A stretch of 64,000 bases of DNA from Escherichia phage phiC120. The stretch lies in sequence record KY703222; one strand, written 5' to 3'. Positions 27,115 through 30,940 of this stretch are shown one piece after another (the first letter of the stretch is position 1; the number at the start of each line of letters is the position of its first letter). The position numbers were made by a program, and so were the translations under genes. The notes under the pieces were generated by a model. That model saw nothing but the letters and a program-made list of their open reading frames with translations, was not told the origin of the DNA and did no database searches.

Positions 27115-28215
27115 TTACGCTGTGAAGATTTTATCCCACATCGCAACAACTGCATCTCGGTTATACTTCTTCCATACTGCTTCAGCACGTTTAACTCGAG
27201 CTTCGTACGTGTCAGTGAATTCTAATACAGCTTTTGTGTAAAGCGCAACTACTTCTTTCTTAGGAGTAGAGGAATCAATTTCTACACGCACAGTATCTGG
27301 GTCATATTCGAATGTCGCATGCGGATAATCCTTAAAAACTAACTGAATTACAGGGACACCTTTAGAAATGGCTTCAATAGAACTATTCTCTACCGTACCT
27401 GTGTCAGGACACGTATTAATAAGTGCTTTAGCTGTTTTAAGACGTTCCATAATTTCACTGTGTGGAGCATCAATAATAACAGGATACTTAGCCGGTGGTG
27501 CCCATTTGCTTGGACAATAACCAATACCATTTTCGCCTAGTGCTTTAATCGCTTCAAGAGCAACATCAGTACGACGCATTTTAGTGTCATAACGTTGTGC
27601 ACTAATAATCAGATCAGTCGCCGGAAGAACTTCAGGTTTCTCATTCAAACAAATAACCGGATAATCTTCGGCTTCAAACAACGGATTTGCTCGCCAATAA
27701 TCATAATCAATTTTGTCAGTCAGACCTGAAGTCATATAACAATATTTGCGTTCAAATTCACGGAAGGCTTTAGTAGGAGCATAACTCTTACCACCGTTCT
27801 TATGAATTTGAATAGTCTGGTCCCAAATTTGAACAATGCCACGAGATACCGGTTCAAATGGTGTTGCCATAAAATTCTTATGAACTTTAGAGAGGCCCGC
27901 GTCTTTAATTGCCTGAACAGTTAGTTTGGTCGGTTCCATTGTAACAACGAAATCGTACTCATTAATGCCGGCTAGTTCAACAATCTTACGAGCCATAGTA
28001 TAACTCATACCTAGACTGAATTTAGTCAGATGACCAACAGGATGATGATTAACCTTCCAATCACCAAATGTGTCATTATCAAAACCGATATAATCAATAT
28101 CGGCACCGATAGAAACTAAATATTTCAACACATTTAAATGTACTGCTTCAAGACCACCTTGTACACGTTCAGGATTAAATGGGACTGCACGAGATGGGAT
28201 AAACATAACTTTCAT
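27115..28215 (-). CDS. GT-B fold glycosyltransferase (candidate DNA hmC glycosyl/arabinosyl transferase)
   Basis: 366 aa; C-terminal TGTVENSSIEAISKGVPVI resembles the GT4 catalytic signature; no counterpart at this position in T4. Confidence 0.7.
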   Translation of the reverse strand: MKVMFIPSRAVPFNPERVQGGLEAVHLNVLKYLVSIGADIDYIGFDNDTFGDWKVNHHPVGHLTKFSLGMSYTMARKIVELAGINEYDFVVTMEPTKLTVQAIKDAGLSKVHKNFMATPFEPVSRGIVQIWDQTIQIHKNGGKSYAPTKAFREFERKYCYMTSGLTDKIDYDYWRANPLFEAEDYPVICLNEKPEVLPATDLIISAQRYDTKMRRTDVALEAIKALGENGIGYCPSKWAPPAKYPVIIDAPHSEIMERLKTAKALINTCPDTGTVENSSIEAISKGVPVIQLVFKDYPHATFEYDPDTVRVEIDSSTPKKEVVALYTKAVLEFTDTYEARVKRAEAVWKKYNRDAVVAMWDKIFTA

Positions 28216-28241: not shown

Positions 28242-28259
28242 AAGCTCCCGAAGGAGCTT
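28242..28259 (-). terminator. Hairpin (AGCTCC-UUCG-GGAGCT) overlapping the HNH gene stop
   Basis: 7-bp stem, CTTCGG loop, followed by ATTTTAATTTT. Confidence 0.45.
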
Positions 28260-29055
28260 AGGACATCCAACACATTTTATAACCTTTGCAGGTTCTGTTA
28301 GGATTATTTAATGCTTTCAATATATTAGAAGACCCTATACCTAAATACTCCCTTAATTCATAAAGATAGTTAAAATCAATAGTTTCACCTGTTTTTACAC
28401 TTGTGATTCTTATAGGCCTTCTTTCATATTTAGATTTATACAACTCTCTAGTCTTAGCTTTAGTTTCTTCTGACCTAGGAGTGTATGGTTTAAATCCTTT
28501 TGTTTTAAATGTTTCCATTCTTGATTTAGTTATTTTATCCTGATGTTCTTTTGTTTTTACAGGTGCTTTTCGCCCATTCTCCCAAGATAACTTGTTGGCC
28601 TGTATTATTTTATCTATTGCTTCTTGCGTATGAGTTTTACCATAAAATGGATTTAATTCGCCTATACGTTGTGAAGCAATATGTGACATTAATTCTCTTG
28701 TTGCTTTAGTATGTTTTTTACCTTTAAATGGGTTGCCATTTTTAGCAATCCATTCTTTCATAAATCTAGAGTGCTCTTTAGAGAATTCTTGTTTAAGCCA
28801 ATCATAATCTCTAGAATTTCTAGCTCCTATGTAAAAAGCTCTAATAGCCATAAGCATAGAACGGTTCTTATGAATTTTATAAAGCAATAAATGGGCGATA
28901 AAATGCTCTCTAGGGGTCATTTTAACTAGATTTGATTTAGCATTACTCCCGCCCATAGATTTAGGCAAAATATGGTGAGTTTCAGTATAATTAGGAATAG
29001 TGCTGCGGTTTTTAGCCGCAGCGATAAGTTTATCATAAATTTTACGATAATTCAT
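28258..29055 (-). CDS. HNH homing endonuclease (Mob-like, with NUMOD3-type repeats)
   Basis: HNH core TETHHILPKSMGGSNAKSNLVKMTPREH; repeated NPF(K/Y)GK(K/T)HT motifs; ATG at 29055 overlaps gene 39 stop (TAATG); ORF track start 29070 is TTG. Confidence 0.8.
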   Translation of the reverse strand: MNYRKIYDKLIAAAKNRSTIPNYTETHHILPKSMGGSNAKSNLVKMTPREHFIAHLLLYKIHKNRSMLMAIRAFYIGARNSRDYDWLKQEFSKEHSRFMKEWIAKNGNPFKGKKHTKATRELMSHIASQRIGELNPFYGKTHTQEAIDKIIQANKLSWENGRKAPVKTKEHQDKITKSRMETFKTKGFKPYTPRSEETKAKTRELYKSKYERRPIRITSVKTGETIDFNYLYELREYLGIGSSNILKALNNPNRTCKGYKMCWMS

Positions 29056-30875
29056 TATCCTAGCATCCAATCTTTACGGAGTTCAGGGTCGTTACCCATG
29101 AGCATTTCAAATAGTTCTTTCCAATTTTCAGGAAGTTTAACTACGTCGTACACAGGGTTTTGAATCATTTCTTTATATTCATCTCGCTGAAGTGAGCCCA
29201 ATCCCTTGATGTATCGAATACTATGCTTAGGAAGCGTATCTTTAGCTTCTTCATACTCAGCTACAGTATAAAACCATTTTTGAGATTTGCCAATTTGTGC
29301 AATAATTACAGGTGTTTTAACAAAGCGAATACGTCCTTGTTCAAACAATTCAGGCCAATTACTAAAGAAAGCAAGCAAAGCCGGATAGATACTTCCAAGA
29401 CCGTCATGATCGGCATCGGTCATAATTGCAATATTACGATAGTTCGTATTCTCTGCCTTTTCACCAAGAATAAGACCTGTGATAGCACAGATATCGAATA
29501 ACTCTTTGTTCTTCATCATATCAGCATATGACATACCCCAGCTATTCATCACCTTACCACGTAATGGGAATCCGCCGTGTAGTTCACGGTCACGAACATC
29601 AATGAGATATCCAATTGCCGAATCACCTTCTGTTAAGAACAATGTCGTATCTGCATCTTTACCGCATTGGTTAGCTTTAATATGCTTATGAACCTTAGCT
29701 TTAGTTGCCTTTTTAGCTGCTTTAGTTTCTGCAGCCTTTTCTGCTGCCAATTTACGAGCTAATGCTGCTTCAACAATAGGCATAATCAAGGATTCGTTTT
29801 TAAGAAGTGCCTGAGCAATTTTCTTAGCATCTAATTGGATATGATTACGAATATCACCATACGTTGACGTTAAACGTTCTTTAGTCTGAGAATCAAAACG
29901 CATGTTGCTCATGTCTCTAATAAACATCAACATTGTGAGGCATTCTTTAACACGAGCTTTAGTGACTTCAATACCCTTATATTTCTTTTTAATACCCGGC
30001 AAAAGATGTTCGCAGATATCATCCATTACACATTCAACATGATGACCACCATTTTTAGTATGGATGTTATTCACATAAGTTAAATGACGGAAGCCATCTG
30101 GTGATGTTGTGAATGCTATAGAGACTTTATCATTTTCTTGAATGATGTTATCTTCACCAAATTGTTTAGCAAATCGTTTAAAATTACCATCAACCTTTTT
30201 ACCATTAAATGTGAACTTGATATCAGGATAAACGACTGCCAATGTTTGAAGTCGGTCTAAAGTAATATCTAAATAAATTTGAGATAAATTATGCTCTTCA
30301 AATGAAGTGAAATCAGGAGTGAAGATTACTTTAGTGCCTTTACCTTTAGATTTCTTAGAAGACCATGATTTGTTTTCCATTCCGTTTGAACAGTTAACAG
30401 TGATTTCATTTTCGCCATCTGACGTGATGCCTGTAAACAACGTAGAGAAGATATTAGTTAAACTACTCCCGACGCCGTTCATACCACCAGTCTTGCGTTC
30501 AGAATCATCACCAAAGTTACCACCGGCCTTTGGAATAGTCCAGGCTGCTACAGGACCAGGAATTTGTTCACCTGTTTGGTCGGTAACTAAACCTTGAGGA
30601 ATACCACGTCCGTTATCTTCCACCGAAACTTGATTATTTTTAATTTGCACATCAATTTTATTTGCAAACTTAAATGATGTACGAATAGCTTCATCAACCG
30701 AGTTGTCAATAATCTCATCGATTAATTTAACCAGACCAGGAACATATTCAACTTGTTGATATTTACCAAACAAAAAACGCTCGTGGGCTTCTTTAGCAGA
30801 AGAACCAATATACATGCCACTACGTTTCTTAATATGTTCTACATCTGACAGTACCTTAATTTCATTTTTAATCAT
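29055..30875 (-). CDS. 39: DNA topoisomerase II large subunit, unsplit (T4 39 and 60 equivalents in one ORF)
   Basis: 606 aa; GyrB-like ATPase and TOPRIM motifs; no separate gene 60. Confidence 0.93.
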   Translation of the reverse strand: MIKNEIKVLSDVEHIKKRSGMYIGSSAKEAHERFLFGKYQQVEYVPGLVKLIDEIIDNSVDEAIRTSFKFANKIDVQIKNNQVSVEDNGRGIPQGLVTDQTGEQIPGPVAAWTIPKAGGNFGDDSERKTGGMNGVGSSLTNIFSTLFTGITSDGENEITVNCSNGMENKSWSSKKSKGKGTKVIFTPDFTSFEEHNLSQIYLDITLDRLQTLAVVYPDIKFTFNGKKVDGNFKRFAKQFGEDNIIQENDKVSIAFTTSPDGFRHLTYVNNIHTKNGGHHVECVMDDICEHLLPGIKKKYKGIEVTKARVKECLTMLMFIRDMSNMRFDSQTKERLTSTYGDIRNHIQLDAKKIAQALLKNESLIMPIVEAALARKLAAEKAAETKAAKKATKAKVHKHIKANQCGKDADTTLFLTEGDSAIGYLIDVRDRELHGGFPLRGKVMNSWGMSYADMMKNKELFDICAITGLILGEKAENTNYRNIAIMTDADHDGLGSIYPALLAFFSNWPELFEQGRIRFVKTPVIIAQIGKSQKWFYTVAEYEEAKDTLPKHSIRYIKGLGSLQRDEYKEMIQNPVYDVVKLPENWKELFEMLMGNDPELRKDWMLG

Positions 30876-30924: not shown

Positions 30925-30940
30925 AAGGGCCGAAGCCCTT
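30925..30940 (-). terminator. Hairpin terminator (AAGGGC-UUCG-GCCCTT then U-run)
   Basis: Overlaps stop of ORF 30939..31364. Confidence 0.55.

Follow-up and report, generated by a model that had tools for sequence, protein, structure and literature searches.

A predicted Mob-type HNH homing endonuclease gene at the 3' end of topoisomerase gene 39 in T-even phages, with signs of flank co-conversion and passage between genera

Introduction

MobA and MobE, free-standing HNH endonucleases of T-even phages, are promoterless and nick a neighbouring conserved gene (PMC2988022, PMC2790892). The MobA element is inserted at nt 1399-1419 (aa 466-473) of the gene for the topoisomerase II large subunit (Topo2L), which it splits into genes 39 and 60; it is about 1.1 kb long and includes CTE/NTE extensions of ~44 aa and a 50-nt translational bypass cassette (bioRxiv 10.1101/2022.08.31.505936). 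In T4, MobE is encoded between nrdA and nrdB, and a terminator hairpin lies 27 nt past the mobE AUG (PMC2790892). I-HmuI, encoded in an intron of Bacillus phage SPO1, is a nicking enzyme (PMC2988022). On a larger scale, 'HEG islands' and homing endonuclease genes (HEGs) at recombination boundaries have been described (Barth, Dunham & Seed 2023). Here we describe an HEG behind gene 39, which resembles each of these systems in part.

Results

The window analysed is a 64,000-nt stretch of DNA from Escherichia phage phiC120 (KY703222), the sequence of which was used in the comparisons as phage phiE142. It contains, all on the minus strand, gene 39 (29055..30875), the HEG ORF (28258..29055) and a glycosyltransferase (GT) gene (27115..28215). 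The 265-aa HEG ORF is already annotated as "homing endonuclease" in phiE142, and the locus represents no new kind of system. Based on the ORF, the RefSeq annotation and Pfam matches to DNA_gyraseB, HATPase_c and TOPRIM_C, gene 39 encodes the large subunit of DNA topoisomerase II as a single 606-aa ORF; an earlier note, made from the sequence alone, had rightly called it unsplit. Gene 39 hosts the HEG and is presumably also its target.

Direct reading of the sequence confirmed another statement of that note, that the endonuclease ORF begins on the stop codon of gene 39: TAA (29057-29055) and ATG (29055-29053) have one base in common, giving TAATG at 29053..29057 on the minus strand. AGGA is positioned just 2 nt upstream of the ATG. 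The ORF as listed (28258-29070) begins at an upstream TTG, and the ATG at 29055 yields MNYRKIY..., the start common to all relatives. Coupling of HEG translation to gene 39 via the overlap is plausible; T4 mobE likewise overlaps the end of its upstream gene. No T4 late promoter (TATAAATA) was found within kilobases of the HEG, and a sigma-70 scan in its vicinity gave no more sites than shuffled sequences.

Within the HEG ORF, folding revealed a GC-rich 7-bp hairpin, GCUGCGG-CUAAAAA-CCGCAGC (29002..29022, minus strand), which begins 33 nt past the AUG; the 101-nt region around it folded with a z-score of -3.6. The position is similar to that in mobE (hairpin about 30 nt into the ORF), whereas the hairpin in the HEG differs in having no clear U tract. 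It is a possible attenuator.

The HEG product was examined with Pfam, phrog, alignments and an AlphaFold2 model. NUMOD3 matched two stretches (36.5 bits, above the 20.4 cut-off; E 4.6e-9) and phrog_655, 'homing endonuclease', matched with E 4.6e-54, in agreement with the earlier description of a Mob-like HNH endonuclease with NUMOD3 repeats. An N-terminal HNH nuclease domain (aa 1-75, about 28831-29055) is followed by separate modules, the NUMOD3 repeats (about aa 100-151, about 28603-28758) and a helix-turn-helix-like C-terminal module (about aa 210-263), all encoded on the minus strand; an N-terminal HNH domain with a distinct C-terminal DNA-binding part is also the build of MobE (PMC2790892, PMC2988022). 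Pfam HNH models scored below cut-off on this protein (16 vs 21.4 bits), and a sequence search of PDB returned only a weak match to the HNH domain of McrA, with the HNH residues aligned to those of EcoKMcrA. The motif itself (His-His ... Asn ... His) was intact: N42, H51 and H55 were invariant among 35 relatives, and H27 and H28 were at least 90% conserved. Mutated or missing HNH residues, which the earlier note had named as grounds against its reading, were not seen. At the C-terminus, the protein aligned with relatives that end in G-(F/Y)-K-W-(K/R)-Y.

The AlphaFold2 model (mean pLDDT 89, pTM 0.45) displays predicted helical repeats and a C-terminal strand/helix module, and its top fold match in PDB was I-HmuI (1U3E), a local match only (88 aligned columns, 19% identity, E 4e-3). 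In I-HmuI the modules stand in the order HNH, NUMOD3-type helices, C-terminal helix-turn-helix, the same order as in the HEG product. I-HmuI differs in being intron-encoded and in an extra N-terminal DNA-binding sheet, which is not evident in the model. From these matches, the HEG product is predicted to be an HNH (beta-beta-alpha-metal) homing endonuclease of the T-even 'Mob' type, with predicted nuclease activity.

Alignment and junction strings delimited an 800-nt insertion (28264..29063, minus strand) relative to HEG-less Mosigviruses. At the end of gene 39 it separates TGGATG from TCCTAA, at about nt 1812 (aa ~604), two codons ahead of the ancestral stop. The insertion starts with CTAGGATAA, so that the last sense codon and the stop of gene 39 are replaced by a Leu-Gly-stop tail from the cassette, and finishes with ...TGTTGGATG; (T)TGGATG direct repeats flank it (29064-29070 and 28264-28270). 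Its content is only the 9-nt new tail and the HEG ORF, which borrows the old stop, its final codons (TGG ATG TCC TAA) being the previous end of gene 39. Between AV115 and the near-isogenic, HEG-less G2285, the indel was also 800 nt (span 29070-28271).

According to the earlier note, mobA occupies the equivalent position in T4. Both elements use gene 39, but at different sites (aa ~604 versus aa 466-473), and the HEG insert brings neither a split nor a bypass. Like the MobA element, the HEG insert preserves the function of its host gene by supplying replacement coding sequence, and its loss leaves 'hit-and-run' footprints (bioRxiv 10.1101/2022.08.31.505936). Unlike it, the insert leaves gene 39 whole, adds only Leu-Gly-stop within its 800 nt, and has no CTE/NTE extensions and no bypass cassette. 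The proteins are alike in the HNH domain, residues 1-71 of the HEG product being 61% identical to an intact MobA-type protein of phage e11/2; beyond residue ~71 the two are unrelated, the C-terminal DNA-binding part included. Judged from these alignments, the HEG is not the T4 MobA element. A homologue near the topoisomerase gene of Shewanella phage Thanatos-1 was considered as the same element and rejected, since its arrangement is the MobA-type split.

A terminator-like C(UUCG)G tetraloop hairpin, AAGCUCC-UUCG-GGAGCUU (28242..28259, minus strand), overlaps the stop codon of the HEG and continues into the tail CAUUUUAAUU; it thus combines a GC-rich stem (7 bp, 4 GC pairs), a UUCG loop and a U-rich tail. 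The 51-nt stretch folded at -11.4 kcal/mol, with a shuffle z-score of only -1.87. The order endonuclease ORF, hairpin, GT gene was as the earlier note had given it, but the hairpin is not part of the HEG unit: empty-site sequences showed it directly 3' of gene 39 in HEG-less phages. It therefore appears to be an element of the host locus, a resident neighbour of the HEG with a putative role in termination.

Employing BLAST identity bands for allele counts, we found the HEG ORF in 26 phage records (at least 98% amino acid identity), every time behind gene 39, whereas more than 120 Mosigvirus records lacked exactly 800 nt and were otherwise 97-98% identical. The presence/absence polymorphism that the earlier note had asked for is thus evident, and its view of the HEG as free-standing was borne out, the gene being present or absent at one locus among near-identical phages. 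At the same identity (at least 98%), the HEG was found behind gene 39 in 8 Tequatrovirus records. The copies vary at just 7 of 798 nt across two genera. Seven HEG-less records retain the HEG-type end of gene 39, six with a 19-nt scar and one (NHEP36) with a precise empty junction.

More distant relatives of the HEG (41-45% identity) also lie directly behind the topoisomerase large-subunit gene, which is complete (606-607 aa) in L020/L021 and L023 and cut at the contig end in L024/L025. Stop/start overlaps (TAATG, GTGA, ATGA) were found in 3 of 4 lineages. The genes downstream of these relatives differ, where enough of the contig could be seen.

Sliding identity and allele switch points delimited a co-conversion tract in the 3' part of gene 39 (29058..29471, minus strand). 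Gene 39 of phiE142 and that of Tequatrovirus fPS-90 are about 75% identical up to about 29470; from there through the HEG to 28168, identity is 96-100%. The switch from T2-type to Mosigvirus-type sequence lies at 29471/29457 in fPS-90, F1 and BYEP01 (the last with one T2-type site, 29237, within the tract), unlike FL12, in which it lies at 29427/29409. The length of gene 39 accompanying the HEG is 230-410 nt, also across the Mosigvirus/Tequatrovirus boundary. On the other side, the GT ORF contributed only its initial 48 nt (28168..28215, minus strand) to what came with the HEG into Tequatrovirus. There GT is cut to 16 codons and joined at a microhomology to the last 33 nt of the recipient's own gene 39, which are retained downstream as a non-coding remnant; in 4 of 4 Tequatrovirus loci the junction reads ...AATCCTGACC|TTCGTAAAGAATGGATGAGCCAGTAG.

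In AV115 compared with phiE142, near-identity stops about 50-90 nt past the HEG stop, and the differences between AV115 and G2285 concentrate in the insert and in two patches of gene 39 (a and b, below). These boundaries point to co-conversion of host flanks with the HEG, and the locus as a whole bears the marks of presence/absence, co-conversion, recent cross-genus transfer and loss. As in the 'HEG islands' of Barth, Dunham & Seed (2023), the HEG adjoins an essential gene where a high-identity block between diverged phages has its edge; the block at gene 39 differs in size, about 1.3 kb and not >10 kb. We also considered the divergence of AV115 gene 39 in its 5' part as an effect of the HEG and dropped this idea, as the comparison with G2285 assigned it to the backbone or to a second, upstream HEG-like ORF; gene 39 of AV115-type phages is bracketed by two HEG-like ORFs.

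Allele comparison identified two clusters of HEG-linked substitutions within the last 140 nt of gene 39, which travel with the HEG and remain after its loss. Patch a (29172..29193, minus strand) has 12 substitutions in 22 nt relative to the HEG-less O157 typing phage 3 (other HEG+ copies have 11), which alter GLGSL-EKSEYR to GLGSL-QRDEYK right after the conserved KGLG motif; it is kept without the HEG in JM17, SP21535, NHEP36 and scar-type phages. Patch b (29059..29112, minus strand), in the last codons of gene 39, changes GDDSELRKEWMS* to GNDPELRKDWMLG*. The two patches are likely to contain the target/immunity site, and patch a is the best candidate for the recognition/cleavage site and immunity polymorphism, an assignment based on linkage and on mosaic recombinants of a kind that ordinary crossovers, one after another, could give as well. 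Other motifs after KGLGSL in distant HEG+ lineages (L020, L023, L024) were considered as independent support for patch a and dropped, because a search with the gp39 C-terminus, which returned only short fragments, showed that residues after KGLGSL differ between T4-like genera regardless of the HEG.

Discussion

Taken together, the locus very probably carries a free-standing, promoterless HNH HEG of the T-even 'Mob' type, which was inserted two codons short of the gene 39 end and would home by nicking or cutting HEG-less gene 39. Transcripts of the HEG would come from gene 39 by read-through, and termination-reinitiation would give a low level of translation. In mixed infection, the enzyme would nick or cut HEG-less gene 39 within its last ~140 nt, most likely in the EKSEYR-coding segment after KGLG (patch a) or, alternatively, in patch b by the insertion point. 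Recombinational repair, templated by the HEG+ genome, would then copy the HEG together with its flanks, and HEG+ genomes would be immune because both patches are recoded. The tetraloop hairpin and the GT gene would be resident neighbours. Action on an adjacent conserved gene with co-conversion of flanks is known for MobE (PMC2790892, PMC2988022), although the host gene of that enzyme is nrd and not gene 39, and for the HEG the target is deduced.

Within the same mechanism, the site could be the insertion junction with patch b, destroyed by the insertion, and patch a a linked passenger polymorphism. In classical homing, the insert disrupts the site; patch b directly adjoins the insertion, is linked to the HEG as tightly as patch a, and is kept in NHEP36 and the scar types. 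We consider this placement somewhat unlikely, since JM17 (Mosigvirus) and SP21535 (Tequatrovirus), both without the HEG, combine HEG-type patch a with HEG-less patch b, and the converted block of SP21535 (29237-29142) is centred on patch a. Moreover, characterised free-standing endonucleases of T4 act on the neighbouring conserved gene and not on the insertion point (PMC2988022), as in the nicking of nrdB by MobE (PMC2790892). A more radical alternative is that the HEG ORF is a now-inactive relic or hitch-hiker, and that the mosaic arose by ordinary homologous recombination among co-infecting T-even phages and not by enzyme cleavage. T-even phages recombine at high rates, 2 of the 26 copies are frameshifted by +/-1 at an A6 run, the gene has been lost from seven genomes, dN/dS is uninformative with only 7 variable sites (4 synonymous, 3 not), and several T4 mob genes are without demonstrated activity (Table 1, PMC2988022). 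Yet full length and intact HNH residues are preserved in 24 of the 26 copies, and in ECO111 5-P, the HEG of which has 9 clustered substitutions in the HNH region, 6 of the 9 are synonymous. Identity of the 1.3-kb block is at least 96%, against about 75% for the gene 39 sequence that flanks it. Upstream its edge is sharp, and downstream its join is illegitimate, as break-initiated repair gives; unaided recombination of DNA so diverged would hardly produce such a pattern. A relic carried along passively is thus improbable.

The earlier note had proposed that the endonuclease could promote the spread of the adjacent GT module between co-infecting phages, which would make it, by function or by selection, a vehicle for this DNA-modification module. 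GT is a homologue of RB69 ORF003c/gp3 (99% identity), a putative DNA arabinosyltransferase (PMC6024577, PMC13326640). The two genes do adjoin in phiE142, the conversion tract extends beyond the hairpin and takes in 48 nt at the start of the GT ORF, and a neighbouring element is mobilised in trans by MobE (PMC2790892). However, the 8 Tequatrovirus records with the same HEG contain no GT gene at all, GT having been truncated to 16 codons in the transfer; HEG-less Mosigviruses, RB69 included, all possess GT; the relatives at 41-45% identity also lie behind gene 39 but have other genes downstream; and near-identity between AV115 and phiE142 is over within about 50-90 nt of the HEG stop. As an account of intergeneric spread, a vehicle for GT is largely refuted, and we regard it as the least probable of the alternatives. 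GT appears to be a neighbour outside the mobile unit.

Returning to homing on gene 39, we tentatively propose that the HEG belongs to a distinct, so far undescribed lineage specialised on the 3' end of this gene, nicking the KGLGSL-EKSEYR segment, and that its activity drove the exchange from Mosigvirus (arabinosyl-modified, RB69-like) to Tequatrovirus (glucosyl-hmC). RB69 has been reported as unable to recombine with T4 and other RB isolates (PMC6024577). At this locus, DNA has passed between RB69-like and T4-like phages, their different DNA modifications notwithstanding. If the proposal is true, HEGs would count among the few ways in which genes pass between these incipient species, and through them the C-terminus of an essential enzyme would undergo continuous remodelling.

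The gene 39 locus offers a clean natural example of the life cycle of a T-even HEG, apparently from invasion through co-conversion, cross-genus transfer and immune 'empty' alleles to decay, and a concrete prediction of a target site in an essential gene. At least two different Mob-type elements use gene 39 as host, each with a site of its own, and in some phages a third HEG-like ORF lies at the 5' end of the gene. A scan of IMG/VR with the GT protein returned only 3 loci.

Organization of the gene 39-GT region and anatomy of the insert

In the window, gene 39 encodes an unsplit topoisomerase II large subunit (606 aa, with Pfam matches; 29055-30875, minus strand). It is followed by a homing endonuclease gene (HEG; 265-aa ORF, 28258-29055, minus strand), a hairpin (28242-28259, minus strand), a 366-aa ORF for a glycosyltransferase (GT; 27115-28215, minus strand), rIIA.1, rIIA and rIIB, this stretch being wholly minus-strand. 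The gene 39 stop (TAA) and the HEG start (ATG) have one base in common (TAATG), and an AGGA lies only 2 nt ahead of that ATG. The arrangement described in the earlier note, with HEG on the stop codon of an unsplit gene 39 and then a hairpin and the GT gene, was thus borne out by sequence. The GT protein shows 99% identity to ORF003c of RB69, a candidate DNA arabinosyltransferase (Thomas et al. 2018, PMC6024577) listed as putative beta-arabinosyltransferase 2 in a 2026 study (PMC13326640).

The window matches Escherichia phage phiE142 (NC_055709) at 100% identity, and in that record the HEG ORF is already annotated as 'homing endonuclease'. The record has only 121 kb and is classed as Carettavirus, yet Mosigvirus phages of ~168 kb match this locus at 97-98% identity. 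Part of the genome may be missing from the record, or its classification may be odd. Immediately upstream of gene 39 is a second UUCG-tetraloop hairpin (AAGGGC-UUCG-GCCCUU, 30925-30940) with a T-rich tail, scored as terminator-like on either strand.

The junction was examined in four Mosigviruses without HEG (O157 typing phage 3, AlbertHofmann, G2285 and RB69). In such phages gene 39 ends with ...CGTAAAGAATGGATG TCC TAA, directly followed by the hairpin. In phiE142, an 800-nt insert (29063-28264, minus strand) lies between TGGATG and TCCTAA. Its start, CTA GGA TAA, provides gene 39 with a new Leu-Gly-stop tail, the stop of which is overlapped by the HEG ATG; its end is ...TGT TGG ATG, so that the HEG ORF runs into the former end of gene 39 and stops there (W-M-S-stop). 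A direct repeat, (T)TGGATG, is found at both junctions. The hairpin and the GT gene with its promoter region therefore lie outside the insert and are resident at the locus.

HEG encodes a putative HNH homing endonuclease

The HEG product contains two Pfam NUMOD3 stretches (E 4.6e-9) and matches PHROG 655 'homing endonuclease' (E 4.6e-54). Residues 1-71 show 61% identity to the intact MobA-type protein of phage e11/2; the remainder is unrelated. Across 35 aligned relatives, N42, H51 and H55 never vary, and conservation is at least 90% for H27, H28, E25, P31, G35 and G36. These residues form the HNH motif and also align with EcoKMcrA; the catalytic residues of the Mob-like HNH enzyme proposed in the earlier note are intact. 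Pfam HNH models scored just under threshold. An AlphaFold2 model (mean pLDDT 89, pTM 0.45) gave the HNH homing endonuclease I-HmuI as the best PDB match (local, 88 columns, E 4e-3), and weaker matches were other HNH nucleases. At its C-terminus the protein resembles the helix-turn-helix tail seen in relatives, which ends with G-(F/Y)-K-W-(K/R)-Y. Comparative evidence gives good support to reading HEG as a homing endonuclease gene.

No late promoter was found near HEG, and sigma-70-like sites were no more frequent than in shuffled sequence. HEG would be a cassette without a promoter of its own, transcribed by read-through out of gene 39, with low-level reinitiation from the one-base overlap and the badly spaced AGGA. 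In this it would resemble T4 mobA, mobC, mobD and mobE (PMC2988022). Inside the ORF, folding predicted a GC hairpin of 7 bp (29002-29022, minus strand) that starts 33 nt past the AUG; the surrounding 101 nt have a fold z of -3.6, and in the same fold the SD-like UAGGA pairs with UUCCUA ~65 nt downstream. This hairpin, a possible attenuator, shares its position with the internal terminator hairpin of T4 mobE, 27 nt past the AUG (PMC2790892); it has no clear U tract.

Distribution of HEG and its transfer between genera

By tblastn, a HEG protein at least 98% identical was found in 26 phage records (18 Mosigvirus-type loci and 8 Tequatrovirus records), each directly behind gene 39. The other ~1,080 matches, other Mob-like genes at other loci, were below 80% identity, 1,075 of them below 60%. 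The block is absent from >120 Mosigvirus records with flanks 97-98% identical, which establishes a presence/absence polymorphism across relatives.

In Tequatrovirus phages fPS-90, vB_EcoM_F1, FL12 and BYEP01, the order is gene 39, HEG, hairpin, rIIA.1 and rIIA, without the GT gene. Relative to phiE142, gene 39 of fPS-90 is ~75% identical up to ~29470, then 96-100% through HEG. Site-by-site typing placed the switch from T2-type to Mosigvirus-type sequence at 29471/29457 in fPS-90, F1 and BYEP01 (except for a single T2-type site at 29237 past the switch in BYEP01) and at 29427/29409 in FL12. The downstream junction is identical in all four: HEG is followed by the hairpin and the region ahead of GT, then by 48 nt from the beginning of the GT ORF, joined at the microhomology TAAT(C/G)CTGACC to the last 33 nt of the recipient's own gene 39, now non-coding, with T2-type sequence thereafter. 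One junction common to the four loci, with the remnant of their own gene 39 kept, indicates a single transfer from Mosigvirus to Tequatrovirus closed by an illegitimate join and followed by more homologous exchange within Tequatrovirus. HEG copies of the two genera differ at 7 of 798 positions. The proposal in the earlier note that HEG could spread the adjacent GT module is not supported, as these Tequatrovirus loci have HEG without the GT gene.

Within Mosigvirus, most of gene 39 is 97-100% identical between AV115 (with HEG) and G2285 (without); the differences cluster at 29199-29160 and 29112-29079, beside the 800-nt indel. A further difference between the two phages lies in the middle of the GT gene, which is mosaic: at 27600-27920, AV115 is densely substituted relative to both phiE142 and G2285 (78-85% identity), unlike the gene ends (92-99%).

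A candidate target site in gene 39

Two substitution clusters near the 3' end of gene 39 are strictly linked to HEG. Patch a (29172-29193) shows 12 changes in 22 nt relative to O157 typing phage 3 (11 in other HEG-bearing copies), changing GLGSL-EKSEYR to GLGSL-QRDEYK directly past KGLG, a conserved motif; patch b (29059-29112) takes in the final codons. Two mosaics that lack HEG, JM17 (Mosigvirus) and SP21535 (Tequatrovirus), carry HEG-type patch a without patch b. In SP21535, patch a lies at the centre of the converted block (29237-29142), which has T2-type sequence on both sides. Since the tract spans patch a and reaches neither patch b nor HEG, a break near patch a would explain such tracts more easily than a break at the insertion point, although successive crossovers might also have produced these mosaics. 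The patch-a-only tracts favour patch a over patch b as the site: we give about even chances that patch a is the recognition or cleavage site of the enzyme, and patch b together with the junction is a possible but less probable one. EKSEYR is also replaced in distant HEG-bearing lineages; this is not counted in favour of patch a, because these residues vary between T4-like genera generally.

Loss and decay of HEG

The HEG-type end of gene 39 (143-nt probe, at least 97% identity) was found in 33 records, 26 with HEG and 7 without. Six of the seven (OLB35, LF82-4, phiEC1, TH12, TH58 and CCU7) were assigned to a scar type by match extent and length, the sequences being read for OLB35 and LF82-4. 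These two have kept the Leu-Gly-stop tail plus a 19-nt scar built from diverged insert ends. The scar, CTTGGTTAATTGATAGATG (region L002:2917-2974 in OLB35 and L018:647-704 in LF82-4), shows ~4 differences from the matching insert ends of HEG-bearing phages, despite flanks 97-99% identical. Its source may be a HEG copy that had diverged, or it may represent an older landing-pad allele. NHEP36 has both HEG-linked patches, yet its junction is precisely empty, as would be expected had the two TTGGATG repeats recombined.

At the A6 run 28714-28719 (HEG nt 337-342), AV118 has one additional A and ECO111 5-P one A fewer. Both frameshifts split the ORF after the HNH domain and reflect either decay into a pseudogene or homopolymer sequencing error. 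In addition, a cluster of 9 substitutions (6 synonymous) in HEG nt 56-127 of ECO111 5-P suggests conversion from another mob HNH domain.

Relationship to MobA and other endonuclease genes around gene 39

The MobA element inserts at nt 1399-1419 (aa 466-473) of the topoisomerase large-subunit gene, splits it, adds ~44-aa extensions and a 50-nt bypass, and nicks nearby (bioRxiv 10.1101/2022.08.31.505936). The present element lies ~400 nt farther downstream in the same gene, leaves it unsplit and has only the HNH domain in common with MobA. Of the comparison with mobA in the earlier note, the gene stands, but not the equivalent spot; the element would work like a Mob endonuclease, yet it is not the MobA element. 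The literature searched contained no description of a HEG at this position of gene 39. HEG represents an uncharacterised homing endonuclease of a well-known type; its natural history is clear, and the target predicted for it can be tested.

The nearest full-length relatives outside this group (41-45% identity) are on metagenome contigs, where each directly follows a gene for the topoisomerase large subunit. On L020/L021 and L023 this gene is complete (606-607 aa), and on L024/L025 the contig ends within it. In two cases the relative overlaps the stop of gene 39 (GTGA, ATGA); another stands apart from gene 39 and has its Shine-Dalgarno sequence inside a hairpin; and in one lineage 27 nt of the gene 39 end are still present in duplicate past HEG. 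A 51-aa ORF and rIIA.1 lie downstream in one case, RNA ligase 2 in another. The association of the HEG lineage with gene 39 appears to be old.

In AV115/G2285-type Mosigviruses (12 records), the start of gene 39 is overlapped by another HEG-like ORF, which encodes 227 aa with three NUMOD3 stretches (E 8.7e-12; L004:5570-6253 in AV115, L026:3477-4160 in G2285). Over the first 1.1 kb of gene 39, these phages share only 60-80% identity with phiE142 or O157 typing phage 3. Gene 39 is therefore mosaic and has endonuclease genes at both ends. On L020, a T4-like metagenomic contig with a 45%-identical HEG relative behind gene 39, an Endonuclease_7-domain ORF (235 aa, E 2.9e-17; 1144-1851) is located directly upstream of gene 39. 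In Shewanella phage Thanatos-1, the DNA of which carries a pentose on cytosine, the gene for the topoisomerase large subunit is interrupted by an HNH ORF with 31% identity, which leaves parts of 511 aa and 83 aa (L019:3469-6326), a split of the MobA type.
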